64,000 nucleotides of DNA from positions 5,877-69,876 of the forward strand of contig CAWFLT010000007.1 in assembly GCA_963816795.1 (NCBI GenBank), given 5' to 3'. Position numbers and translations under genes: made by a program. Of this stretch, positions 1,811 to 58,194 are shown piece after piece; positions within the stretch are counted from its first letter, which is position 1; every line of letters begins with the position of its first letter. The stretch is from an uncultured Acidobacteriota bacterium (GTDB taxonomy: Bacteria > Acidobacteriota > Vicinamibacteria > Vicinamibacterales > SCN-69-37). The notes under the pieces are model-generated. The model had not been told where the DNA came from. It made no database searches and worked only from the letters and a program-made list of their open reading frames with translations.

Positions 1811-4021
1811 CTATCGAAAGTTCTCGATCATCATCAAGTCGGCCCCGGAACTGACAGTCCGACTGTAGAGGATGGTCTTGCCATCCGGCGAGACGGCGAA
1901 GCCTGCCGTTAAGAGACCAACGTGATACTGCTCCAGCTTCCCGACTTCGCGGTCCTTGCCGGTGCCGGGATCCATCACGCGTACGGACGTCTGGCCGGGC
2001 GCAAAGCCGGCAGAACACGGCACGTAATAGATGCCGCTGTCGGTCACTGCCACCGCGGTGCCGATCACGCACGCGATCAGTGTGGCGGGTGCGCCCCCGG
2101 CAAGTGGCTGTGCCATCACCGGCGAGGTGCGCAGCGCCGGTTGATACAACAGCGTCTTCCTGTCGGCCGACTCGCGCCCCACGTACCCGCCGCCGCCGTG
2201 CGTGACTTGCTCCATCGACCCCTTGCGCACCCGCGTCCGCCAGATGTCGCGCTGCCAGAAGTCGCGCGCATTCGCCTGTTTCCACGAGAAATAGATCCAG
2301 TCGCCGTCGTGCGACCACGTCGGCATGTTCTGGTCGCCAGGCTCCGCAGTGATCTGCTGCTGCATACCGCTCTGGATGTCGACTGTCCAGATATGCCAGC
2401 TACCGTCCGCCGCCCGCGACTCGAACGCGATCTCCCGGCCGTCGGGTGACCATGCGGGCGAACCCTGCCATCGCCCCGGGCCATGGGTCAGCTGCGCTGG
2501 TTCCGACCCGTCCGCACCGGCGATCCAGACTTCTACCGCCTCGCCTGCCCGCGCCGAGGAGAAGGCAATTCGCCGGCCATCCGGAGAAAACTGCGGGCTC
2601 CCGTCGAACACCGAAGACCGTGCCACTGGCTGAGGCGATCGTCCCGGTTCGAACCGGTAGATATCGTCGTCATCGACGAGACGCGCAAAGACCAGGCGAT
2701 CGCCGCCAGGGGCGATCGAAGGAAACATCGCACCGGCGCCCGCCATTTCGATTCGTTCAGGCGGCCGCTGGCCATCCACTCCGACGCGCCACAGGTAGTT
2801 GACGCTCAGCTCTTCGGCGCCATAGATGAGGGACTTCCCATCTCTGCTCCAGGCAAGACCCAGGATCGTCGTGTCTGGAACCTGAGTCACTTGCCTGGGC
2901 GGCCCGACCGCAGCGAATGCCGAGTCCACGTCCAGAACGTTGACATGGCAGGCTGTGCGGATGCTCGGGCCCGCGCACGAGACATACGCGAGGCGACGGC
3001 CGTCAGGCGAAAACGTCGGCGTCCGGTCCGCTCCCGGTGGAGGCGGCTGCGTGAGGCGGCCGCGGCTCACCGCCCTGCACGGGTATCAGATAGAGGCCAT
3101 TGCTCGGGTGCGTCGCGTCGGGCGGGGCCGCCCGTCCGGCAACAAGGTAGCGATCGTCCGGAGACCACGCGGCTGGCACGGAGACGAGGAAGTCGCTGAC
3201 CTGCCGATCAGAACCCCCGAGCGACGACATCACCCGGACGTGACCCGAGAACGGGACCGGCCCACGACGAACGTACGCGATCTGCCTGCCGTCGGACGAC
3301 CACATGGGCGCCACGTCATCTGAGGGATCCGTCGTGAGCGGGTGAGGGTCGGATGATCCGACCACCTGAAGGTAAATGTCCCGGTTGGACTGTCCTTCGC
3401 CTGTCCACTCGAACAACACCTGGCGCCCATCCGACGAAAGCCTCCCAATCTCGGAGCCGCTCAATGCGGTGAGTTGGACCGTTCGCATCGCCGCCTCTGG
3501 CGCGGTCGCAGTTCGAGACGTGCGAAGCAGCCACAAACCGGCCAGCGTCAACATGACGATGCCTGTCACGCCAACGGCGATCCAGCGCAAATGCCACCGA
3601 TGAGACGTGGGCGTGTGAACCCCATTTGCGCCACTGGGTTCGAGACGCTCTCCGGGATGACGGGCGCGGTCATGGCTGCCGACCCCGGGACGATTTCCTT
3701 GACGCGTGCCATGAACCGGTAGCCGTGTCCCGGAACCGTCACGATGTATCGCGGCTGCTGCGCCGTCTCTCCGAGTGCCTTGCGGATCAGGAAGATCTGC
3801 TGCGTCAGGTTTCCTTCTTCAACGATGACATCGGGCCAGACGACTCGGAGCAGTTCGTCCTTTGTCACCACGCGATCGCGGTTGTCGACCAGGAGGACCA
3901 GCGTATCGAACGCTTTCGACATCAAGGGCACGGGCGTCCCGTCGCTGACCAGGAGGCGCATCTCCTGCAGCAGGGTGAATTTGTCGAACTCCCAGCTCGC
4001 ACCCGTGGGGACTCTGAGCAT
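1811..4021 (-). pseudogene. Membrane-anchored OmpR/CadC-type winged-helix regulator fused to a periplasmic TolB-like (PD40) beta-propeller; frame broken twice (or assembly indels)
   Basis: ORFs 3566..4021, 3003..3590 and 1811..3070 overlap head-to-tail and read as one protein. It has a wHTH (ELLRVVWPDVIVEEGNLTQQIFLIRKAL..VTVPGHGYRF), a TM helix (WIAVGVTGIVMLTLAGLWLL) and repeated PD40 motifs (SSDGRQIAY, SPDGRRLAY, SPDGRRIAF, SPDGREIAF). Frame switches are at approx 3598 and approx 3060 (..VQGGEPR | RLTQPPPPG..). Confidence 0.75.
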
Positions 4022-10804: not shown

Positions 10805-13617
10805 TTACTCGCTTCGCAACGCTTCGGTGGGATCGATGCGAAGGCCACGTCGGGCAGGACCCAGCGACGCGAGGACGCCGACGAGCAGCATGAACGCGGC
10901 CGCGCCGGGGAGCACGCCGGGAATCGGCAAGCCGCCGACCTGCTCGATCGGCACGTACCGACCGACGAGGTACGCGGCGAGTATCCCCACGGCCGAGCCG
11001 GCACCGATCTGCCAGAAGGCGCGCCTGAACACAGCCGCCAACAACTGGCCCGGCTGGGCGCCCAGGGCCGAACGGATACCGATCTCACGCCGGCGCTGCG
11101 CGACCGTGAACGCCATGAGCGCGTACAGGCCGGCGGCCGAGAGCAGCAGTGCGCTGCCGGTGACCGCGCCGATGATGATGGCGCCAAGGTTGTCGCCGAA
11201 GCGGTGGTCGCGATAGATCTCGGCCAACGTGCGGACCTCGTCGACGTGCAGCGCCGGGTCGACGCCCGCGGCGACGTCGCGGAGGCGTTCCGCGAGACCG
11301 GCCGGACCGCCTCTCAAGCGAAGCTGCAGGTGGGCGGGATGGATCTGACCCGGGGCGACCGGATGGTACGCCACCCGTGCGTCGGTCGTCACGGGCAGAT
11401 TACCGACGACGCCGACCACTTCGTACCAGCGGTCCGCTTCCGGGCCGTGCAGCCACTCGCCGTCCATCGCACGGACGTACCGGAAACGGCGTCCGAGCGC
11501 GTTGCCGCCGGGGTCGATGGTGTCGGCGAAGTTGCGGTTGACAATGACCGCATCGGGCTCCGCCGCGACGTCGCCCTCGGCGAATCCGCGGCCGATAAGG
11601 GTCGGCACCTGATACATCTCGAAAAAGGAGCCATCGACCTGGTTGAACCGGGCGGGGAAGCCCGGCAGCCGCCCGTTGAGCGCCTCGGTCGGCACGTCGC
11701 GGCCCTCGATGTCGACGAACACCCAGGGTTCCTCGCCGGGCGGGCGCAGGGCGGCCGCGACGTCGAGAATGCCCGGGTCGACCAGAAGCCGTCGCGCCAA
11801 CTCGCGCTGGCGATCGCCAAAGAGCGCGGCGCGTTGTCGGCCATTGAGCACGACCCGGCCCTCTTCCAGCGCGACACGTGCGGTCGCAAACTCCTCGGCG
11901 GCGAAGCCCGGGCCGACGATGCCGGTCCGCAGCGTGCCCCAGGCGAGTTCGGCGGCCAGTGGCAGCACGCCGACCGAGAAGGCGACCTGCGCGATCACCA
12001 GCGTGGTCCACGTGGCGCCCAGCCGCAGGCTGGTCCGTCCGGCGAGCGCGCCGGCGCCGAGCCGCGCCAGGCGCCCCGTGGCCTGGATCGCCGGCACGAG
12101 GCCGGACACGGCGGCCCCGGCCACGGCCAGTCCGGCGACGAAGAGAAGCGTGCGGTACGAAATGTCGAAGGTCATCCAGAACGGCGGGCCACCGGGGAGG
12201 TCCTGCAGGCGCCCGGCCACCGCTACCGACACCACGCGCAGGATCAGCAGGGCGACACCGGCGGCCGCGGCCGTCAGCACGAGCGCCTCGATGAAGAGCT
12301 GCCAGACGATCCGCGCGCGGCTGCCGCCGAGGGCGTGGCGGGCGGCGAACTCCTGCTGCCGCGTGACGGTGCGCGCGTAGCTCAGGATCGCGATGTTCGC
12401 GCCGGGCGGCAGCAGCAGCAATACGAGTGCGAGACTGGACAGCGACCAGAGCAGGCCCAACTCGCCGCGTTCGAAGTCCCCCGTGAAGGCAAACGTGTAC
12501 GGCACCACGCGCGGTCCGGTCCCTCCTTCGGGCTGCGCGCTACGGAGGGCAGGCCTCCTTCGGGCTGCGCGCTACGGAGGGCAGGCCCTCCTTCGGGCTG
12601 CGCGCTACGGAGGGCAGGCCCTCCTTCGCGTTGCGCGCTACGGAGGGCGGGCGGGAGGATCCCGAGCGCCGAAACCTCCGCATGCGCGCGCGCGAGCGTC
12701 GCGTCCGGCGTGAGCCGGCCGAAGACGACGCCTTCGGGACCGGCGTTGCGCAGCATCTCGTCGGCCCCGCGCCGCAGCGGAACCCAGTACCGGAAGTTGT
12801 ACGGGAACTGGAAGCCGTCCGGCATGACGCCGACGACGGTGTGCACGGCCTCGCCGAGCCGCAGCTCGCGTCCGATGACGTCTCGCGCACCGGCGAAGCG
12901 CCGCTGCCAGACGTCGTGGCCGATGACGATGACGGGGGCGGCGCCGGGCGCCAGGTCGGCGTCGACGATGACCCGGCCGATGAGCGGCGGCACCCTCGCC
13001 ACCCGGAACCCGGCGGCCGAGATCTCGGCGACCGCCACGAGCTCGACCGATCCGTCGGCCGTGATCACGTTGCGCCGGATCGTCTGGAAGGCGCCGACGT
13101 CATCGATCGATTGCAGGCTGGCGCGCCAACGCTCGATGTCCTGCCACGCCGTGTCCCGCCGCTGACCGGCCTCGCGGTCCCAGATCTGGATGGCGACGAT
13201 CCGGTCGCCCTCTTCGAGCGGAAGCGGAGTCCAGAGGAGGACGTCGAACGCGGCGAACACGACCGCCGCGATGCCGATCGCCACGGACATCGCCAGCCCG
13301 CCGACCAGCGTCAGCCCCCAGTTGCGGACGAGCAGGCGGAGCCCGACCCTGACATCGAGCCACGACGAGGCGAGCCAGGGCAGGCCGCGCCGGTCGCGCA
13401 GCGCTTCGAGCGCCTGGATGCGGCCGCCGGCGGCGGCCCGGGCGAGTCGCGCCGCGTCGTTCGGCGCGTGGCCCTGCCGACGAAGCTCGTCTTCAGCGAG
13501 GGCGAGGTGTCCGGCAAGCTCGCGCTGCAGGTCATGGTCGGTCCGCCGGCCGCTGAGCGCGCCCCAGACCCTCCGTGTCCACTCCCGAAGCGAGGAAAGC
13601 ACCCCGGGGGGCGTCAT
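10805..13617 (-). pseudogene. ADOP-type duplicated MacB/FtsX permease carrying an internal 4 x 33-bp tandem repeat; frame broken by a 1-bp shorter repeat copy
   Basis: The start ATG at 13617 overlaps the PadR stop (ATGA). The N-terminal part lies in ORF 12382..13752 (MTPPGVLSSLREWTRRVWGAL..LVRNWGLTLVGGLAMSVAIGIAAVVF). The C-terminal part lies in ORF 10805..12508 (..REIGIRSALGAQPGQLL..IDPTEALRSE). The two frames join exactly across the repeat at 12521..12651. Confidence 0.8.
12521..12651. repeat. Tandem repeat, 4 copies of a 33-bp hairpin-forming unit (CCCTCCTTCGGGCTGCGCGCTACGGAGGGCAGG) inside the ADOP coding sequence
   Basis: The units are 12521-12553 (33 bp), 12554-12585 (32 bp, CC instead of CCC at its start), 12586-12618 (33 bp) and 12619-12651 (33 bp, variant). 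Each unit has CCCTCC...GGAGGG inverted ends. On the coding strand each copy reads PALRSAQ(P/R)EGG. Confidence 0.9.
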
Positions 13618-13961
13618 GCCGGATCCTCGAAGAGCGTGTGCATGACGGACACCATCTGATCCCACGCCTTCTTCTCGGCGGCGAGCCGCCGGCGTCCGGC
13701 GGCGGTGATGGCGTAGAAGCGCGCCTGGCGGTTGTTGTCGGTGACGCCCCACTCGGCTTTGACCAGGCTCTGCTGCTCCAGCCGCATCAGGCCCGGGTAC
13801 AGCGTGCCCATGTTCAGCGTGAGCGCGCCCGACGAGACCCGCTCGAGCCGGGCGCCGATGGCGTAGCCGTGCTGCGGCCCCAGCGCCGCGAGCGTTTGCA
13901 ACACCATCAAGTCGAGCGTGCCGCGCAGGACTTCCGCCTTGGAAGGCTCTTTATTAGACAT
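13614..13961 (-). CDS. PadR-family transcriptional regulator
   Basis: The 115-aa ORF has a typical PadR wHTH (LRGTLDLMVLQTLAALGPQHGYAIGARLERVSSGALTLNMGTLYPGLMRLEQQSLVKAEW). It is translationally coupled to the downstream ADOP permease. Confidence 0.9.
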   Translation of the reverse strand: MSNKEPSKAEVLRGTLDLMVLQTLAALGPQHGYAIGARLERVSSGALTLNMGTLYPGLMRLEQQSLVKAEWGVTDNNRQARFYAITAAGRRRLAAEKKAWDQMVSVMHTLFEDPA

Positions 13962-38885: not shown

Positions 38886-39856
38886 TGCGGGAGCGTCAGC
38901 GGGCGAATCCTCCGCCAGAAGAAGTGTTCCGGACGCCGTCGTCCGTCGAGGCAGAAGTGGTCTGCGGATTGCTCGACGCCCACGAGATCGAGGCGGCGGT
39001 CGCGTCGGTGCTCTCGCCGACGCTGTTTCCGATGCGGTTCGGGCAGGCCGAATTCTGCATCACCGTGTCCAGCGCGCTGGCGGCTCGCGCGCGCGAACTG
39101 ATCGCCTCGCATCTCGACGAGGCCGCGGCGGCGGAAATCCGCCGGCTCAGCGACACGCTCGGCCCGCTCGAGGAACGGATCGACTATGAGTTCCGCGACA
39201 TCGGCCTGCTCGAGCACGCTCTGACGCACCGGTCGCGCGCACACGAAGACGCCTCCGGCGGCGTGATCGACAACGAGTCGCTCGAGTTCCTGGGGGATGC
39301 GGTGCTCGGCTTCGTGATCGCCGACTTGCTGTTCACTCGTTTTCCGAAACACAGCGAGGGTTACAAGTCCAAGGTGAAGGCCGGCATCGTCTCCTCGGCG
39401 TCGCTGGCCAGGCTGGCGGAAGATCTCGATCTGGGCCGCTACGTGCTGCTCGGGCGCGGAGAAGAAAAGACCGGCGGCCGGCACAAGCACGCGATTCTCG
39501 CCGACGGGTTCGAGGCGCTCATCGCCGCGGTCTATCTCGACGGCGGCATCGAGGCGGCGCGCGATTTCATCCTGTCCAAGTTCGAGCCGCTGGTCGAGTC
39601 GGCCGGCGACCGCGCCGCCGAAGCGGCGTTCACCGAAGACTGGAAGTCGGCGTTCCAGGAGTGGCTGCAGGCCGAGGGACGCGGCCTGCCGCACTATCGC
39701 ATCGCCTCAGCCGACGGCCCCGATCATCGCAAGCGCTTCGACGTGGAAGTGATCGTCGGCGGGCAGGCCGTCGCCCGCGCGACCGGACGATCCAAGAAGG
39801 AAGCCGAGCAGCAGGCCGCCAAAGCCGCGATGGCGACGCTGAAGCCATCGTCATAG
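38885..39856 (+). CDS. rnc: Ribonuclease III with an about 85-aa N-terminal extra domain (DUF2007-like)
   Basis: RNase III signature NESLEFLGDAVLGFVIADLLF, ..LADGFEALIAAVYLDGG.., and a C-terminal dsRBD (DWKSAFQEWLQ..GPDHRKRFDVEV..GRSKKEAEQQAAKAA). There is no in-frame ATG/GTG/TTG between 38885 and the catalytic domain. The N-terminal part reads FRTPSSVEAEVVCGLLDAHEIEAAVAS... Confidence 0.8.
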   Translation: MRERQRANPPPEEVFRTPSSVEAEVVCGLLDAHEIEAAVASVLSPTLFPMRFGQAEFCITVSSALAARARELIASHLDEAAAAEIRRLSDTLGPLEERIDYEFRDIGLLEHALTHRSRAHEDASGGVIDNESLEFLGDAVLGFVIADLLFTRFPKHSEGYKSKVKAGIVSSASLARLAEDLDLGRYVLLGRGEEKTGGRHKHAILADGFEALIAAVYLDGGIEAARDFILSKFEPLVESAGDRAAEAAFTEDWKSAFQEWLQAEGRGLPHYRIASADGPDHRKRFDVEVIVGGQAVARATGRSKKEAEQQAAKAAMATLKPSS

Positions 39857-39876: not shown

Positions 39877-40032
39877 AGATCTTTCAACACGAAGCGCACG
39901 ACGGGCACGAAGAGGACGAAGACCACGAAGCGAGATCTCAGGGGAAGACTGCGGATCGGAACGCTTTTCCATTCCAACCCTTCGCGTCCTTCGTAAACCT
40001 CGCGCCTTCGTGGGCTTCGTGGTGAAAGATCT
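39877..40032. repeat. Long imperfect palindrome built from ACGAAG/CTTCGT oligomers between convergent rnc and the ATPase gene
   Basis: The outer arms are AGATCTTTCAACACGAAGCGCACGA (39877-39901) and TCGTGGGCTTCGTGGTGAAAGATCT (40008-40032), complementary at 23 of 25 positions. The interior is rich in CACGAAG on the left and CTTCGT on the right. Confidence 0.8.
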
Positions 40033-42966: not shown

Positions 42967-45875
<2,909 letters not shown>

Positions 45876-45882
45876 GAAGAAC

Positions 45883-45938
45883 GAGGGCACGGAGAAGAGC
45901 TAGAGGGCACGGAGAAGAGCGTTCACCTCGCTCCGTGC
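45883..45938. repeat. Direct repeat GAGGGCACGGAGAAGAGC x2 followed by a partial inverted copy (CTCCGTGC)
   Basis: The copies are at 45883-45900 and 45903-45920, with CTCCGTGC at 45931-45938 complementary to GCACGGAG. The element lies in the spacer between convergent purA and the bacilliredoxin gene. Confidence 0.8.
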
Positions 45939-46524: not shown

Positions 46525-47499
46525 GTGCTGTTCGACCTCGACGACACCCTGTTCGACCATTCGCACGCGACCGAGCGGGCCCTTGCCCGGCTGCGCCGGG
46601 CCGAGCCGGCGCTCGCGGCCTGGACGAGCGAGGAGCTCCAGACCCGCCACGGCGCGGTGCTGGAGACCCTCCACCAGGAGGTGCTGGCTGGCGCGCTCTC
46701 GATCGACGCGGCGCGGGAGGAGAGATTCCGGCGCCTGCTCACGGCGGCGTCCTCCAGTGAACTGGCCGCGCGCCGGGCCGCCGTCGTGGCCGCTCTGTAT
46801 CGCGACAGCTACGCCCGCGAGTGGCGCGCCGTGCCCGGCGCTGTCGCCCTGCTCGAGGCGCTCAAGCGCGCCGGCGTCGGCGTGACGGTCATTACGAACA
46901 ACCTGACGGCCGAGCAGCGCAGGAAGATCGACGGCGTCGGCCTGGCGCCGCTCGTCGACCACCTGATCACCTCAGAGGCGGTCGGGGTGAAGAAGCCGGA
47001 CGCGGCGATCTTCCGGGCGGCGCTCGACGCGTCAGGTACCAGGGCCAATGAGGCGGTCGTGCTCGGCGATGCCTGGCCGATCGACATCGCGGGCGCGCAG
47101 GCGGCCGGCATCCGCGCGGTCTGGTTCAATCGGACCGGCCTGCCGAGCCCGGATGCGTCAGTGCCGGAGCTCCGATCGCTCGAGCCGATCGAGCACGCAG
47201 TGTGGGCTGCTGCTGACAGGAGCCTAGAAGGTACGAGGCGCGTACCGCGTTCTTACTTAGGGCGCCGTGTGGGACCTGGTGTGGAACCCGGCGGCCTCGA
47301 GCTCGCCTCTCAGCTCGTCGAAGATCTTTCGCGCTGCCGCGGCATCGCCGGTCAGCTTCAGCAGCCGGTCGACGCCGAACATCCTGAAGCGGATGGCTTC
47401 CATGTGAAACGCCGCGATCGCGCGCTGGAGCGCCTCGGCGGTCTCCAGCAACTCAGGGGTGTGTTCTGTCGTCGGCAGCGCGCGCAGGGCGATGAGTAA
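46525..47499 (+). CDS. HAD-superfamily hydrolase (subfamily IA-like); both ends uncertain
   Basis: It has VLFDLDDTLFDH (motif I), VITNN (motif II) and KKPDAAIF..VVLGDAWPIDIAGAQAAGIRAVWF (motifs III/IV). HAD similarity ends near 47220, but the frame stays open to 47499, antisense to the convergent ORF 47257..47541. The ATG at 46506 (MSDVRA..) is one frame off and may be the true start. Confidence 0.6.
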   Translation: MLFDLDDTLFDHSHATERALARLRRAEPALAAWTSEELQTRHGAVLETLHQEVLAGALSIDAAREERFRRLLTAASSSELAARRAAVVAALYRDSYAREWRAVPGAVALLEALKRAGVGVTVITNNLTAEQRRKIDGVGLAPLVDHLITSEAVGVKKPDAAIFRAALDASGTRANEAVVLGDAWPIDIAGAQAAGIRAVWFNRTGLPSPDASVPELRSLEPIEHAVWAAADRSLEGTRRVPRSYLGRRVGPGVEPGGLELASQLVEDLSRCRGIAGQLQQPVDAEHPEADGFHVKRRDRALERLGGLQQLRGVFCRRQRAQGDE

Positions 47500-47541
47500 G
47501 GCGTCGATCTTCGCCAACGACGCCGCGGTCTTCTCTGACAT
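47257..47541 (-). CDS. Small helical hypothetical protein (94 aa)
   Basis: It has very high GC3 and a non-repetitive sequence (MSEKTAASLAKIDALLIALRALPTTEHTPELLETAEALQRAIAAFHMEAIRF..). Confidence 0.5.
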   Translation of the reverse strand: MSEKTAASLAKIDALLIALRALPTTEHTPELLETAEALQRAIAAFHMEAIRFRMFGVDRLLKLTGDAAAARKIFDELRGELEAAGFHTRSHTAP

Positions 47542-47571
47542 CGGACGCTATTCTGTCATACAGACTGTTTT

Positions 47572-47906
47572 CAATGGGTAATGGGTAATCGGCAATCTGC
47601 AATGGCAGAGACATCGGCAATCGGCAATCCCGATGGGCAATCGGGAAATCGACAATCTGTGGATGGGGAAAGTGAAATGGGGAATGTTTCGATGGGAAAT
47701 GGCAAATGGACAATGGGCGCCCATTGTCCATTACCCATTCTCCATCGGTGTTGTCCGTTGCCGATTATCCATTGTCGATCGGCGTTGTCCGATTGCCGAT
47801 TACCCATTGTCGATCGGTGTTGTCCGATTGCCGATTACCCATTGTCCATCGGGATTGTCCATTGCCGATGTGTTTGCCATTGCAGATTACCGATTGCAGA
47901 TTATCG
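47572..47906. repeat. About 330-bp imperfect palindrome made of CAATGGG/CAATCGG-type oligomers, with a 35-bp tandem duplication in the right arm
   Basis: A perfect 24-bp palindromic centre TGGACAATGGGC|GCCCATTGTCCA lies at 47707-47730. The outer arms AATCTGCAATGGCAGAGACATCGGCAATCGGCAATCCCGATGGGCAAT (from 47594) pair with the reverse complement of 47840-47888 at roughly 90 percent by eye. The 35-bp unit ATTGTCGATCGG(C/T)GTTGTCCGATTGCCGATTACCC is repeated at 47771-47805 and 47806-47840. Confidence 0.9.
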
Positions 47907-47911
47907 ATGAA

Positions 47912-48766
47912 CTACTTCGTTCCATGCATCCGCTCGAGGCGGCGGGTGGTGAGCCGGGCGAAGATCGAGCAGGCGAGGACCAGGGTCACCAACACGAGCG
48001 CGCCGGCCCACGCTTGACGGTGCCAGTCGTCGTACGGCGCGATCGCATAAGTGAAAATCTGGACCGTGAGCGACCCCATCGGTTCGGTCAGGCTGGTTGA
48101 CCAGAAGCGGTTGCTCAGTGCGGTAAAGAGCAGCGGCGCTGTCTCACCGGCGATCCGGGCCAGGGCCAGGACGATTCCGGTGATGATGCCTGGGAGGGCC
48201 GCCGGAAGCACGACGGTGAACACCGCACGGCCACGAGTCGCGCCGAGGGCGAGCGCGCCTTCTCGCAACGACATCGGCACCAGTCGCAGCAGTTCTTCGG
48301 TCGTGCGCGTGATGATGGGAATCATCATGATGCCCAGCGCGAGACTCCCTGCCAGCGCCGAGAACTTTCTGAAGGGCAGGACCGCGACGGCGTACACGAA
48401 GACGCCGATGACGATCGACGGGACCCCGTTGAGCGTGTCGGCAGCGAACCGAACGGCCGACGCAAAGCGCGACCCCTGATACTCGGCGACGTAGATGCCG
48501 CTCATCACGCCGATCGGCACCGCCCACAACGCGCCGATCGCGCACATGATGAGCGACCCGATGATCGCGTTCGCCATGCCGCCGCCGACTTCGCCGACCG
48601 GGCGGGGCACTTCGGTAAAGAACTCCAGATTCAGCGCCTGCACACCCTGCGAGACGACAAAGAACAGGATGTACGCGAGCGGAATGAGCGCAATCAGCAC
48701 CGACAGCGTGGCGAGCCCCGTCATGAAGGCGGAGACGACGCGGCGACGGAAGTCACGGCCCGTCAT
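47912..48766 (-). CDS. pstA: Phosphate ABC transporter permease PstA
   Basis: The start MTGRDFRRR.. at 48766 overlaps the pstC stop (ATGA). It reads ..GGMANAIIGS..REGALALGATRGRAVFTVVLPAALPGIITG..ARIAGETAPLLFTA. Confidence 0.9.
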   Translation of the reverse strand: MTGRDFRRRVVSAFMTGLATLSVLIALIPLAYILFFVVSQGVQALNLEFFTEVPRPVGEVGGGMANAIIGSLIMCAIGALWAVPIGVMSGIYVAEYQGSRFASAVRFAADTLNGVPSIVIGVFVYAVAVLPFRKFSALAGSLALGIMMIPIITRTTEELLRLVPMSLREGALALGATRGRAVFTVVLPAALPGIITGIVLALARIAGETAPLLFTALSNRFWSTSLTEPMGSLTVQIFTYAIAPYDDWHRQAWAGALVLVTLVLACSIFARLTTRRLERMHGTK

Positions 48767-49719
48767 GTCGGCAGCGCCTCGGCGGCTGGTGGAGCGGCCT
48801 TCGCCGCGACCGGCGGCCGCGTCATCCGCCAGATCAGCAACCTCGACGCGAAATTGACGACGAGCGTGATGACGAACAGCACGAGGCCGATCTCGACGAG
48901 GGCGTGGAGGTGCAGTTCTTCGACGGCCTCGCTGAACTCGTTGGCGATGACCGCGGCCATCGTGTACTGCGGCGAGAAGAGCGACCAGCTCACTTTCGGG
49001 GTGTTCCCGATGACCATCGTGACGGCCATCGTCTCCCCGAGAGCGCGACCGAAGCCGAGCATGATGGCGCCGATGATGCCGGTGCGCGCGTAGTGGAGGG
49101 CGACCTTCGTCGCTTCCCAGCGCGTCGCGCCAAGGGCGTAGGCGCCTTCCCGTTGCGCCGGGGGCACGGCTTTGAGCACTTCTCGAGCGACTGATGACGT
49201 GTACGGCACGACCATCACGGCGAGAATCAACGCTGCCGCCAGCATGCTCACCCCAACCGGCGGGCCGCTGAACACCGGGAGCGCCCGCATCCAGTCGGGC
49301 ATCGAGGTCTGGATGGAACGCACGAGCGGGACGAGGACGAACACGCCCCACAAGCCGTAGACGATCGACGGAATGGCCGCCAGCAATTCGGTGAGGAAGG
49401 TAAGGGGAGTGCGCACCCAGGTCGGGCTCGTCTCCGTCAGGAAGATCGCGATTCCGAGCGCGATCGGCGTCGAAATGAGCAGCGCGAGGATCGACGAGTA
49501 CAGCGTGCCCCAGATAAATGGCAGGGCGCCGAAATCGCCGGACACGGGATCCCACGTCGAGGTTCGCCAGAAGTTGAAGCCGAACTGGCGGATCGAGAGC
49601 ATCGACTCGAGCGCGAGCACCACGCCGATCGCGAAGACGGCGCTCACGAGCAGAAACGCGAACGACCCGGTCGTCAGCCGAAAGCCCAGGTCGCCCGCGC
49701 CGCGTCGGAACCAACTCAT
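48763..49719 (-). CDS. pstC: Phosphate ABC transporter permease PstC
   Basis: The start MSWFRRG.. at 49719 overlaps the pstS stop (ATGA). It reads ..GALPFIWGTLYSS..REGAYALGATRWEATKVALHYARTGIIG..GRALGETMAVTMV. Confidence 0.9.
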   Translation of the reverse strand: MSWFRRGAGDLGFRLTTGSFAFLLVSAVFAIGVVLALESMLSIRQFGFNFWRTSTWDPVSGDFGALPFIWGTLYSSILALLISTPIALGIAIFLTETSPTWVRTPLTFLTELLAAIPSIVYGLWGVFVLVPLVRSIQTSMPDWMRALPVFSGPPVGVSMLAAALILAVMVVPYTSSVAREVLKAVPPAQREGAYALGATRWEATKVALHYARTGIIGAIMLGFGRALGETMAVTMVIGNTPKVSWSLFSPQYTMAAVIANEFSEAVEELHLHALVEIGLVLFVITLVVNFASRLLIWRMTRPPVAAKAAPPAAEALPT

Positions 49720-50756
49720 GACACTTTGATCTTCTTCAGCGCTTCCAGTTCCATCTGCACGACGTTCGCGGGCAACGGTGAATACCCGAGATCCGTCGCG
49801 AACTTCTGACCGTCGGTCAAGGCCCACTTCATGAAGTCGACCATCGTCTTCGCGGCCGTCTTGTCCTTCGGCACTTCATAGAAGAGCAGCCACGTGAACG
49901 ACGAGATGGGGTAGGCGCCCTTTCCGGGAGGATTGGTGATCGACACGCGGAAGTCCGCCGGCATCTTGCCCGCCGTCGCCGCGGCGGCGGCCGTGACGGC
50001 CTCCGGCGACGACTTGACGAACACGCCGTCGGAGTTCTGCACGGCGCCGAAGGGCAGCTTGTTCTGGTTCGCGAAGACCGGTTCCATGTAGCCGATGGCG
50101 CCGGCGGTTTGCTTGACCAGCCCGGCGACGCCTTCGTTGCCCTTCGCGCCGACACCTGCCGGCCAATTGACGGAAGCCGCCACACCCACGCGCTTCAGCC
50201 ATTCAGGCGAGACCTTGCCGAGGTAGTCCACCCAGACGAACGTCGTGCCGCTGCCTTCCGACCGGTGAACGACGACGATGTCCGTGCTCGGGAGGGTGAC
50301 GCCGGGGTTGACCTTGGCCAGCGCCGCATCGTTCCACTTCGTGATCTTGCCCAGGAAGATGTCGGCCAGGATGGGGCCCGTGAACTTGAGCTCCGCCGTG
50401 ACGCCGGGCAGGTTGTACGCCGGCACGACCGAACCCAGCACGCTCGGGAAGTGCAGGATTCTGGCGGGCGCCGCGGCGAGCTGATCGTTCGTCATCGGCG
50501 AGTCGGTGGCGCCGAAGAAGACCGTCTGATTGGTCAGCTGACGGATGCCGGCGCCCGAGCCCAGGGACTGATAGTTGATCTCCACGTTCGGGTGGAGCTT
50601 GTTGTATTCGGAGAACCACTTCGAATAGATCGGGAACGGGAACGTGGCCCCGGCCCCGTTGATCTGAACCTTCTGTGCCACGACGGTCGCGCCGAGCGCG
50701 ATCGCGCACGCGCTCGCGGCGGCCACCTGCCAACGTGATGAGTTGCGTCCTCTCAT
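49716..50756 (-). CDS. pstS: Phosphate-binding protein PstS
   Basis: It has a signal peptide, then INGAGATFPFPIYSKWFSEY and ..VVHRSEGSGTTFVW... Confidence 0.9.
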   Translation of the reverse strand: MRGRNSSRWQVAAASACAIALGATVVAQKVQINGAGATFPFPIYSKWFSEYNKLHPNVEINYQSLGSGAGIRQLTNQTVFFGATDSPMTNDQLAAAPARILHFPSVLGSVVPAYNLPGVTAELKFTGPILADIFLGKITKWNDAALAKVNPGVTLPSTDIVVVHRSEGSGTTFVWVDYLGKVSPEWLKRVGVAASVNWPAGVGAKGNEGVAGLVKQTAGAIGYMEPVFANQNKLPFGAVQNSDGVFVKSSPEAVTAAAAATAGKMPADFRVSITNPPGKGAYPISSFTWLLFYEVPKDKTAAKTMVDFMKWALTDGQKFATDLGYSPLPANVVQMELEALKKIKVS

Positions 50757-56453: not shown

Positions 56454-56542
56454 GCAATGAGGCAATGGGGCAATGAGGCAATGGGGCAATGAAGCCCTTC
56501 TGTCATTGCCTCATTCACCCATTGCCTCATTGCCCCATTGCC
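56454..56542. repeat. Hairpin built from GGCAATG(A/G)GG oligomer repeats between convergent genes
   Basis: The left arm GCAATGAGGCAATGGGGCAATGAGGCAATGGGGCAATGA (56454-56492) and right arm TCATTGCCTCATTCACCCATTGCCTCATTGCCCCATTGCC (56503-56542) form the hairpin. The right arm supplies the last codons of the amidase ORF (..QWGNEAMGE). Confidence 0.85.
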
Positions 56543-58137
56543 TGATGCGCGGTCCACGCCGGTGCCTGGTCGCCTGTTCGTAGGCGTAGGCGAGTTTGAT
56601 CAACGTCGCCTCGTCCCAGGCGCGTCCGAAGATCGTCATCCCGGCCGGTAGTTGGCCGTTGCGCGTGTACCCCATCGGCACGCTGATGGCCGGGAACCCT
56701 GACGTCGGCGAGAACCGCTGGCTGTTGTCGCCGTGCGGCGACTGCAGGTCGCCGATCGTCCGTGGCGGGTTGCTCCAGGTCGGATAGACGAAGGCGTCGA
56801 GCTTGAGCGCGTCCATCGACGCGGTGACCGCGGCCCCGAACGCTTCGCGGTAGGCCGCGTCGGCTTTGCAGGCGTCGCTCTCGGGTCCCTGCGGCATCGA
56901 CTTGCCGTTCTGGCGCAATCGCTGCTGCACGCTCTCTGGCAACTGCGTCATCTGCGGCGACGCCAGGATCTCGTCGAGCGTGTGCACCGGCGCCTTCTGG
57001 CCGCGCGCGGCGAGGTACTCGTCGATGTCGTACTTGAATCCGCGGCAGGTGCCGCCTCCGCCGCCCTGGCGCGAGGGCAACTCGACCGTGATCGGGTCGA
57101 TGATTGCCGCGCCGGCCGCTTTCATGTCCTCGAGCGCTTTCGTGAAGACGCTGACAATTTCGGCGTCGGTGGTCGGCGTTTCGTACGCCTGCCGCAGCAC
57201 GCCGATGCGCGCGCCCTTCAGCCCGCCGCTGATCAGCGACTTGGCATACGCCGGAACCGCGCGGCCGCGGCTGCGCGCGGTCATCGGATCGTCGGGATCC
57301 TCGCCGACGATCACCTGGAACACCGCCACCGCGTCTTCGACCGTCCGCGCCATCGGCCCGGCGATGTCCGCCAGGTAGCTCAGCGGGATCACGCCGGCCC
57401 GGCTCGTCAATCCCATCGTCGAGCGAATGCCGACGAGGGCGGTGTGCGAGGACGGCCCGCGGATCGAGTTGCCGGTGTCGCTGCCAAGCCCGACGGCGGC
57501 AAAGTTGGCGGCGACTGCGGCCGCGGTCCCGCCGCTCGATCCGGCCGGGACGCGATCCGGCGCGTACGGGTTCCGGGTGTGGCCCTGCAGCGAGTTCAGC
57601 GTCTCGTACGGACTGAAGGCGAACTCGGCCATGTTCGACTTGGCGATCACGATCGCGCCGGCGGCTTTGATCTTCTTGACCTGAAACGCGTCGCGGTCGG
57701 AGACAAAGCCCTTCAGGATGACGCGAGCCCGCCGCGCTCTGCAGGCCGATGGTCTCGAAGTTGTCTTTGACGACCATCGGGACGCAGTGCAGCGCCGGCA
57801 GCGCGCCGCCCCGCGCCCGCGCGCGATCCATCGCGTCGGCCTCGATCAAGGCGTTCGGGTTCACCTGGGTGATCGCGTTCAGCGCCGGCCCCTGCTTGTC
57901 GTACGCCTCGATACGCTTCAGGTACTGCTCGACCAGACCGCGGCAGGTCAGCCGCTTGGCGCGCATCGCCGCGTGGATCTGGGCGATGGTGGCTTCTTCG
58001 ATCTGGAAGGGGGCCTGGGCTCCCAGCCCACCGGCCAGCGACATGAAGGAGATGAAGGTGCTGAAGAACATGAAGAAGATCAATCCGGGTTTTTGATGGC
58101 TTTTCTTCATGAGCTTCATCCCCTTCATTCCCTTCAT
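56511..58137 (-). pseudogene. Amidase-signature (GatA-like) amidase, secreted; one frame break
   Basis: The N-terminal piece lies in ORF 56527..58137 (..KKSHQKPGLIFFMFFSTFISFMSLAGGLGAQA..VPMVVKDNFETIGLQSAAGS). It continues in ORF 56511..57650 (ILKGFVSDRDAFQVKKIKAAGAIVIAKSNMAEFA..PAGSSGGTAAAVAANFAAVGLGSDTGNSIRGPSS). The frame switches near 57721. The start is ambiguous among four in-frame ATGs at 58137, 58128, 58119 and 58110. Confidence 0.8.
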
Positions 58138-58194
58138 GTCCCGAGGCCGATGCGCGACAGGATAGCCCGGCGGTCGCGAGGCGCCAAGCGGCGT

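Follow-up and report, generated by a model that had tools for sequence, protein, structure and literature searches.

The locus lies in a 64,000-nt stretch of DNA from an uncultured Acidobacteriota bacterium, and we refer to this whole stretch as the window. Gene content, namely OMP_b-brl_4 and CarboxypepD_reg receptors, would tentatively point to the same phylum. On the minus strand, the order is a porin-like ORF, pstS (49716-50756), pstC, pstA, a long palindrome, and p94, with a HAD hydrolase gene convergent with p94. The palindrome fills the pstA-p94 spacer from 3 nt past the pstA stop codon to 30 nt ahead of the p94 ATG. The features of this segment are listed here in the direction in which the genes are read; L201 is a related contig introduced further below.

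47912..48811, minus strand: pstA, last gene of pstS-pstC-pstA (Pfam BPD_transp_1, E = 3.9e-22; 99.6% identical to L201).
47719..47911, minus strand: pstA-proximal arm of the palindrome, the 5' arm in the transcript; 193 nt, GGCAATC/GGGTAAT-type heptamers on the minus strand, pairing with 47572-47718 in the RNA fold.
47723..47869, no strand assigned: higher-order 35-nt unit in 4.3 copies, the length-variable part (Tandem Repeats Finder period of 35 and alignment with L201).
47705..47732, no strand assigned: perfect 28-bp central palindrome without a spacer, AATGGACAATGGGC directly followed by GCCCATTGTCCATT.
47572..47718, minus strand: distal arm, the 3' arm in the transcript; 147 nt, with one base different from L201.
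47542..47571, minus strand: 30-nt spacer from the hairpin to the next start codon; holds TGACAGAAT (47558-47550), an extended -10-like motif ending 8 nt before the ATG.
47257..47541, minus strand: p94, the gene after the hairpin, which encodes a conserved hypothetical protein of 94 aa.

Positions 47572-47911 form a single imperfect inverted repeat of YAATSGG heptamers, 340 bp in length, with CAATGGG... at one end and ...TTATCG at the other. A preliminary description of this DNA had placed a heptamer palindrome of about 330 bp directly downstream of pstA, and the structure was borne out well beyond chance. GGCAATSGG occurs 11 times (1.5 expected), a 20-nt heptamer pattern is matched 10 times when as many as 2 mismatches are allowed (0.01 expected), and 20 of the 29 intervals between AAT/ATT triplets are 7 nt long. 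Tandem Repeats Finder resolved the left arm into 12.7 copies of CAATCGG (47572-47657) and the right arm into 21 copies of TTGCCGA (47758-47902), each with a period of 7. In the right arm only, as described previously, five heptamers make up a 35-nt unit that is itself tandemly repeated (4.3 copies, 47723-47869; 87% matches). Aligning the reverse complement of the left arm with the right arm gave 117 matching positions, 25 mismatches, and 56 columns of gaps, which correspond to the surplus 35-nt units. Two earlier measurements required correction: the perfect center extends over 28 bp (47705-47732) and not 24 bp, and the complementarity of the outer arms, put at about 90%, is 82% over 74 nt and 89% over 55 nt. 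Irregular stretches that depart from the heptamer pattern pair between the arms as well (GGCAGAGACATCGG with CCGATGTGTTTGCC), showing that the arms are copies of each other arising from inverted duplication, not two independent arrays.

The RNA fold, a check proposed at the outset, consists of one hairpin of -163.5 kcal/mol, compared to -103.5 kcal/mol for shuffled sequences (z = -12.3). Its first paired base lies 3 nt beyond the pstA stop codon (47912-47914), and the DNA fold is likewise stable relative to controls (z = -9.6). The GC content of the palindrome is 49%, versus approximately 66% for the window and genome. GGG tracts appear irregularly spaced by eye, with CGG and GGG units alternating, and runs of four such tracts are few; a G-quadruplex is unlikely. 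The palindrome carries no coding signal, and the ORFs across it, previously dismissed as not credible genes, represent read-through of the repeat, one of them also overlapping pstA on the opposite strand. No Rfam family matched the palindrome at gathering score, and assignment to an Rfam RNA family was rejected on that basis; the sole match in the whole window was one tRNA. The hairpin is, as had been noted, far larger than a terminator. An intrinsic terminator scan of 47100-48100 returned no site, and the sequence following the stem (AAAACAGUCUG) lacks a U-tract, for which reason identity as an intrinsic terminator was also rejected.

A perfect center with no spacer, together with short-read contigs that break within the repeat, might point to a fold-back introduced during assembly. 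L201, a 108-kb contig from a separate ENA assembly of another sample, encodes a p94 that is 97% identical, and over 20 kb it aligns collinearly with the window at approximately 92% identity; across porin-pstSCA-p94-HAD, the flanking genes are 96.8 to 99.6% identical. It carries the palindrome between the same two genes, pstA and p94, in a form 76 nt shorter (about two 35-nt units fewer), and this copy likewise forms a single clean hairpin (-140.9 kcal/mol; z = -12.7). Short-read contigs from soil run X2 also cover 47450-47738 with no more than 3 differences per contig, extending from unique flank through the left arm and center. Among the sequencing runs listed as containing the locus, none was an RNA or Nanopore run. 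Because an independent assembly shows the same structure and flanks with a biologically sensible difference in unit number, and because the X2 contigs cross from flank to center, we regard an assembly fold-back as extremely improbable.

Comparison of the two copies also indicates how the palindrome changes. The 76-nt indel falls wholly within the 35-nt array of the pstA-proximal arm, while the other arm differs by one base. The whole palindrome differs by 6 substitutions in 264 aligned nt (97.7% identity). Given that the same site is occupied in an independently assembled relative by a shorter copy, the palindrome is real and inherited, and it changes mainly by gaining or losing whole repeat units through slippage. 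Its substitution rate (2.3%) lies within the range at third codon positions of the neighboring genes (1 to 6.4%); we see no sign of special constraint or of selection for the structure, and six changes are too few for a test of compensatory change. The idea that the palindrome is more conserved than the genome average (98% versus 92%) was rejected, since the whole pst region is locally 97 to 99.6% identical. The arms measure 193 and 147 nt in the window versus about 115 and 147 nt in L201. They are unequal in opposite senses in the two genomes, and exact pairing is therefore not maintained.

Downstream of the hairpin, p94 is a real gene, with a GC3 of 0.87 and 1680 homologues, but it has no match in Pfam, NCBIfam, or PDB. 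In many relatives p94 is linked to pstSCA, HAD, disulphide isomerase, and purA. A motif, GTRTGnCAnAATA, ends 8 to 10 nt before the p94 ATG and is kept in six orthologous loci whatever the upstream sequence (the window, L201, L202, L221, L222, and L223). It resembles the extended -10 element of a leaderless p94 mRNA, and we infer a promoter from this likeness. A simple promoter scan did not call the p94 motif; it returned a single weak promoter-like site, inside the repeat.

The palindrome had first been described as lying where pstB is expected, but this expectation does not hold for the lineage. No ABC ATPase P-loop occurs anywhere in the 64 kb, and pstB is missing after pstA in 16 of the 18 nearest pstA relatives (at least 71% identity and enough downstream sequence). 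Among 80 metagenome loci with a related pstA, pstB comes after pstA in most loci below approximately 68% pstA identity. Its absence from 16 of 18 near relatives indicates an ancestral trait of the lineage that the palindrome did not cause. A pstB remnant within the palindrome was rejected, as the window holds no P-loop.

In three relatives (L221, L202, and L122; p94 identity of 80%, 74%, and 58%), the gene directly upstream of p94, in the slot after pstA, encodes an EamA-type transporter, and in L122 and L202 this gene lies between pstA and p94. A tblastn search with the L122 EamA protein found no match in the palindrome, and an EamA remnant there was rejected. In a further group (L203-L208), p94 is inverted and convergent with pstA, with CAGTCTG/CGGTCTG heptamers right after the stop codon. 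L187 has tandem 8-mers and 7-mers immediately after the pstA stop, and relatives have GC-rich hairpins of 20 to 60 nt, or none, after pstA. Among the relatives' loci compared, the palindrome is present in the window and L201 only. This restriction, together with the EamA gene in the slot of more distant relatives, shows that the palindrome is evolutionarily young and arose in the slot after gene loss. In the scenario we favor, two inverted YAATSGG arrays would have arisen locally and then been inherited vertically, with one arm gaining or losing 35-nt units as replication slippage would produce.

The palindrome is one of five hairpins in the window built from short tandem units, with periods of 7, 8, 9, 9, and 11. 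The other four are as follows.

39877-40032: hairpin of CACGAAGNG 9-mers, directly after the RNase III gene and between convergent genes; absent in L201 (17464-17504).
43976-44074: hairpin of 11-mers (GGGGTCAGACC twice, plus complement), in frame inside hutH; in L201 the sequence is different and 49 nt shorter.
56454-56546: hairpin of 8/16-mers (GCAATGAG/GCAATGGG 8-mers) between convergent genes, -68.7 kcal/mol; L201 (921-1141) has 220 unrelated nt in its place.
58040-58140: hairpin of ATGAAGRAG 9-mers overlapping the ATG predicted for an amidase-like ORF on the minus strand (56527-58137); outside L201 coverage.

The locus at 56454-56542 had been singled out as sharing the oligomer vocabulary of the palindrome. 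The structure there is real, but its period is 8/16 nt, and only a GCAATG core is held in common. In a more distant relative, L148, positions 3856-3925 form a hairpin of the same CACGAAG 9-mer type as that at 39877-40032, and other contigs from relatives carry similar hairpins made of other units.

Several repeats in the window are of interest in their own right. Rickettsia palindromic elements insert in frame into genes, and the hutH hairpin behaves like them: this near-perfect structure of about 99 nt (RNA -93.2 kcal/mol; z = -14) lies in an ORF on the minus strand (42967-44565) whose product, histidine ammonia-lyase, matches Pfam Lyase_aromatic end to end despite the hairpin. The translated arms at 58040-58140 read MKGMKGMKLMKK...IFFMFFSTFISFMS, resembling a signal peptide. 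A MacB periplasmic core ORF (12382-13752, minus strand) contains, in the C-terminal portion where an FtsX domain is expected, a 33-nt unit in four tandem copies (12521-12652), each of which forms a small hairpin (CCCTCC...GGAGGG). Just past the purA stop, at 45875-45920, a 20-nt unit occurs twice and is conserved in L201, unlike the hairpins.

To place the heptamers in a wider frame, 185,579 species genomes (596 Gb) were scanned for exact matches to three consecutive YAATSGG units, yielding at least 120 loci. Since a degenerate 20-mer should match approximately 70 times by chance in 596 Gb, weight was put on extended arrays, not on the count. The matches listed include Cyanobacteriota, Acidobacteriota, Planctomycetota, Verrucomicrobiota, Chloroflexota, Bacteroidota, and others; among them, most loci have arrays of 4 to 33 units, approximately 28 have a facing array within 800 nt, and some taxa have 2 to 3 loci per genome. 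In L096, a metagenome-assembled genome (MAG) contig, a heptamer hairpin (GATTGCC / GAAATCT; 134-200 and 800-870) lies in frame in an apparent aminotransferase gene, and in an Acidobacteriota MAG (L074, 1620-1740) a one-armed CAGATTG/CCGATTG array abuts the RNase P RNA gene.

The preliminary description had suggested a dispersed element family or a shared generating mechanism, a view that the data support in part. In its favor are the five window hairpins, heptamer arrays at several loci per genome in other phyla, and the soil metagenomes, where arm-like sequence (31- to 49-mers) is 10 to 25 times deeper than single-copy flanks and adjoins several different neighboring sequences. Against it, neither the window nor approximately 430 kb of relatives' sequence yielded a second copy of the heptamer array, and each hairpin has its own unit. 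Such depth and varied flanks, along with the long inverted arms, the low GC content relative to the genome, and the presence or absence of other hairpins between close genomes, are what a nonautonomous, MITE-like mobile element transposed into the pstA-p94 spacer would produce. However, no direct repeat of at least 4 nt that could be a target-site duplication exists at any boundary within 47562-47580 and 47900-47918, and no transposase lies nearby. The internal tandem structure and the change in unit number point to slippage, and a distinct unit and period for every window hairpin is unlike a MITE family. Lacking a target-site duplication in these intervals and a second copy in the window or the relatives' loci, MITE identity was rejected, and we consider transposition highly unlikely as the origin. 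That each hairpin has its own unit favors, on the sequence comparisons made here, a shared generating process of slippage and inverted duplication at gene ends over one mobile family.

Taken together, we favor the reading that the repeat hairpin was generated locally and stands at the 3' terminus of pstSCA transcripts, where it may act as an exonuclease barrier or RNase III site before the next gene's own promoter; we assign this reading a probability of roughly 0.5. Because it begins 3 nt after the pstA stop, the palindrome would form the last part of the pstSCA mRNA and there pair into a double-stranded, imperfect stem of some 150 bp. Lacking a U-tract, this stem would not be a classical intrinsic terminator, but it would block 3'-to-5' exonucleases and could stall RNA polymerase. 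It should also be a natural RNase III substrate, and the organism encodes RNase III (rnc, approximately 39200-39856). The pstSCA transcript would thus end in, or be processed at, a stem set precisely at the junction of this transcription unit with the promoter of the next, and pstSCA expression would be separated from that of p94, which seems to be served by an extended -10 promoter of its own. The position of other window hairpins at convergent or codirectional gene ends supports a gene-end role, as do the transcription of most Xanthomonas heptamer repeats and their scarcity between divergent genes (PMC4692102). Against it, relatives manage with short hairpins or none after pstA, and other such hairpins come and go between the window and L201, a pattern that fits neutral turnover equally well. 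Any benefit is probably small, and the sequence seems tolerated, not finely selected.

A purely neutral origin is a serious rival, which we hold to be possible but not probable. The palindrome would then have no RNA or DNA role and would be what slippage and fold-back errors of replication have left behind in a lineage prone to such structures, tolerated because nothing at the site is disrupted. Of the other four short-unit hairpins, L201 (approximately 92% identical overall) lacks one, has unrelated sequence in place of another, and carries a different version of a third, the fourth being outside its coverage. The silent-site-like substitution rate of the palindrome, its unequal arms, and its 49% GC in a 66% GC genome with no coding or Rfam signal are all in keeping with neutrality, and heptamer repeats of Xanthomonas have been tested with no function found (PMC4692102). 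Nevertheless, the palindrome was kept across the split between the window and L201 while other hairpins were lost. The hairpins also lie at the ends of genes instead of in divergent promoter regions, albeit in a small sample, and an mRNA stem of about 150 bp can hardly escape RNase III and exonucleases. These points argue against neutrality.

Tracing the palindrome's units in other genomes revealed a regular association of heptamer hairpins with genes for 23S rRNA intervening-sequence proteins (IVPs), which we consider the part of this work worth following. In loci picked by the heptamer pattern, IVP genes (PF05635, TIGR02436) lie exactly between inverted arrays of GGCAATC/GATTGCC or GGGCAAT units (L024, twice, with one copy truncated; L035; L063; L073; L076; L081; and L116, twice). 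An IVP gene not selected by motif (L049) has CTTTGTR arms. We also examined 12 plasmid IVP genes from five phyla, chosen by protein similarity alone (L209-L220). Nine of the 12 have flanking inverted repeats (cutoff, z of at least 5; z of 5 to 21 versus shuffled controls), all nine with a period of 7 or 14, and start and stop codons often mark where the arms begin. The units of these hairpins differ from locus to locus. The association is seen also in MAG loci of further phyla. Seven of the plasmid genes (L209, L211, L212, L213, L214, L217, and L220) lie within or beside defense operons, with neighbors that include DUF1156 and Swt1-HEPN, drmD and MmeI, a helicase and an N6-methylase, hsdS and hsdR, and cas2 and cas1; in L214, the IVP gene is just upstream of cas1.

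These observations raise the question of whether the palindrome is itself an ORF-less member, or a landing pad, of a cassette family in which a heptamer stem encloses a small IVP ORF. The very same units flank IVP genes in the pattern-picked genomes, and neither the CTTTGTR arrays of L049 nor the nine periodic plasmid repeats were selected by motif. The Coxiella 23S rRNA intervening sequence (IVS) has variable tandem GACAGAT heptamers and a 28-bp stem that RNase III cuts, and its loop holds an S23p ORF (PMC4990558); the truncated L024 copy shows that the ORF can decay inside its arms. However, the IVP profile had no match in any frame of 47500-47960 or in window ORFs of at least 60 aa, and no IVP gene was found in the relatives' loci searched, a part of the approximately 430 kb. 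Among the at least 120 heptamer loci, most of the arrays listed are solo or paired with no ORF, and the link consists of common architecture and units, not homology. An IVP remnant in the palindrome was rejected, none being detected, as was p94 as a hidden IVP relative (hhalign probability of 0.1%). Since the palindrome holds no such gene or remnant and p94 is unrelated, we do not claim cassette membership, which we think rather improbable.

For the repeat class at large, the common architecture points to heptamer hairpins and IVP genes being parts of a single phenomenon. An IVP ORF (four-helix-bundle, Avd-like) occurs in the loop of a heptamer stem across at least five phyla. Heptamer-periodic hairpins may conceivably be the noncoding shell of a very widespread selfish cassette whose best-known case is the 23S rRNA intervening sequence, the ORF-less gene-end and in-frame hairpins being decayed cassettes or homing targets; we offer this proposal tentatively, as a minority possibility. 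If true, it would tie together the cyanobacterial STRR and Xanthomonas heptamer repeats, rRNA intervening sequences, and the IVP family. In the literature, we found the association of heptamer hairpins with IVP genes stated for the single Coxiella IVS only, never as a general rule.

We conclude that the palindrome is a member of a known, functionally unexplained repeat class and is not a gene, an artifact, or a stand-in for pstB. This heptamer repeat class has reportedly been known since 1990, when Mazel et al. (cited in PMC4692102) are said to have described the cyanobacterial STRR heptanucleotide repeats. The palindrome adds a further, unusually long example of facing heptamer arrays from an unstudied soil lineage, and its comparison with L201, where entire 35-nt units of the array were gained or lost between flanks that are 97 to 99.6% identical, provides direct evidence of how such structures evolve. 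For annotators, no pstB is to be expected after pstA in this lineage, and no ORFs should be called across the repeat.

On every feature tested (tandem heptamers, gene-end position, facing arrays, and length polymorphism), the sequence of the palindrome fits heptameric simple-sequence repeats in convergent pairs. Summaries in two earlier reports rank heptanucleotide repeats as the most overrepresented long simple-sequence repeats in bacteria and propose polymerase slippage as their source (PMC4679880, PMC4692102). In Xanthomonas campestris, Rehm et al. (2015) described 186 GGGAATC arrays, 70 of which are convergent pairs able to form stem-loops, and 70 to 75 loci per Xanthomonas genome have a plus-strand array facing a minus-strand array (PMC4692102). 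Those repeats are mostly transcribed, underrepresented between divergent genes, and variable between sister species, with no function found (PMC4692102). Like them, the palindrome consists of tandem heptamers with a G-run and an A/T-rich part, is intergenic and near ORF ends, and differs in length between close species at the same intergenic site. Unlike them, its arrays are fused into a continuous 340 bp with a perfect center and a 35-nt higher-order unit, its units are YAATSGG, and it belongs to a different phylum, in a soil bacterium of 66% GC. The cyanobacterial STRR and TAACTGA repeats (PMC4679880) are likewise intergenic tandem heptamers, often at start or stop codons and dispersed over many loci, and many cyanobacterial loci are among the matches listed for the YAATSGG pattern. 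In contrast to the palindrome, cyanobacterial arrays are mostly one-armed and direct, inverted pairs being rarely mentioned in published descriptions.

Other systems share the form of the palindrome more than its units. The 23S rRNA intervening sequences of Coxiella and Leptospira (PMC4990558) also have a long stem, flanking inverted repeats, and heptamers that vary in number between strains, and they are processed by RNase III; they sit in helix 45 or 25 of 23S rRNA with an ORF in the loop, whereas the palindrome lies in an mRNA spacer and has no ORF. REP/BIME sequences (PMC3733652) are extragenic palindromes at gene ends credited with mRNA stabilization and termination, but REPs measure 20 to 40 bp, are marked by a GTAG or CGTC tag, and require RAYT transposases; the palindrome is ten times longer, built of heptamers, and has no such tag at the ends of its 340 bp, and REP/BIME identity was rejected. 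Correia elements (NEMIS) are hairpin-forming, 100 to 150 bp long, and cotranscribed, and they alter adjacent gene expression; in Neisseria mRNAs, they are bound by RNase III and are cut or protected (PMC2649163). Unlike the palindrome, they are a true MITE family, with conserved sequence, a TA target duplication, and hundreds of copies. By analogy, Correia elements are nonetheless the best model for a possible mode of action of the hairpin that follows pstA.
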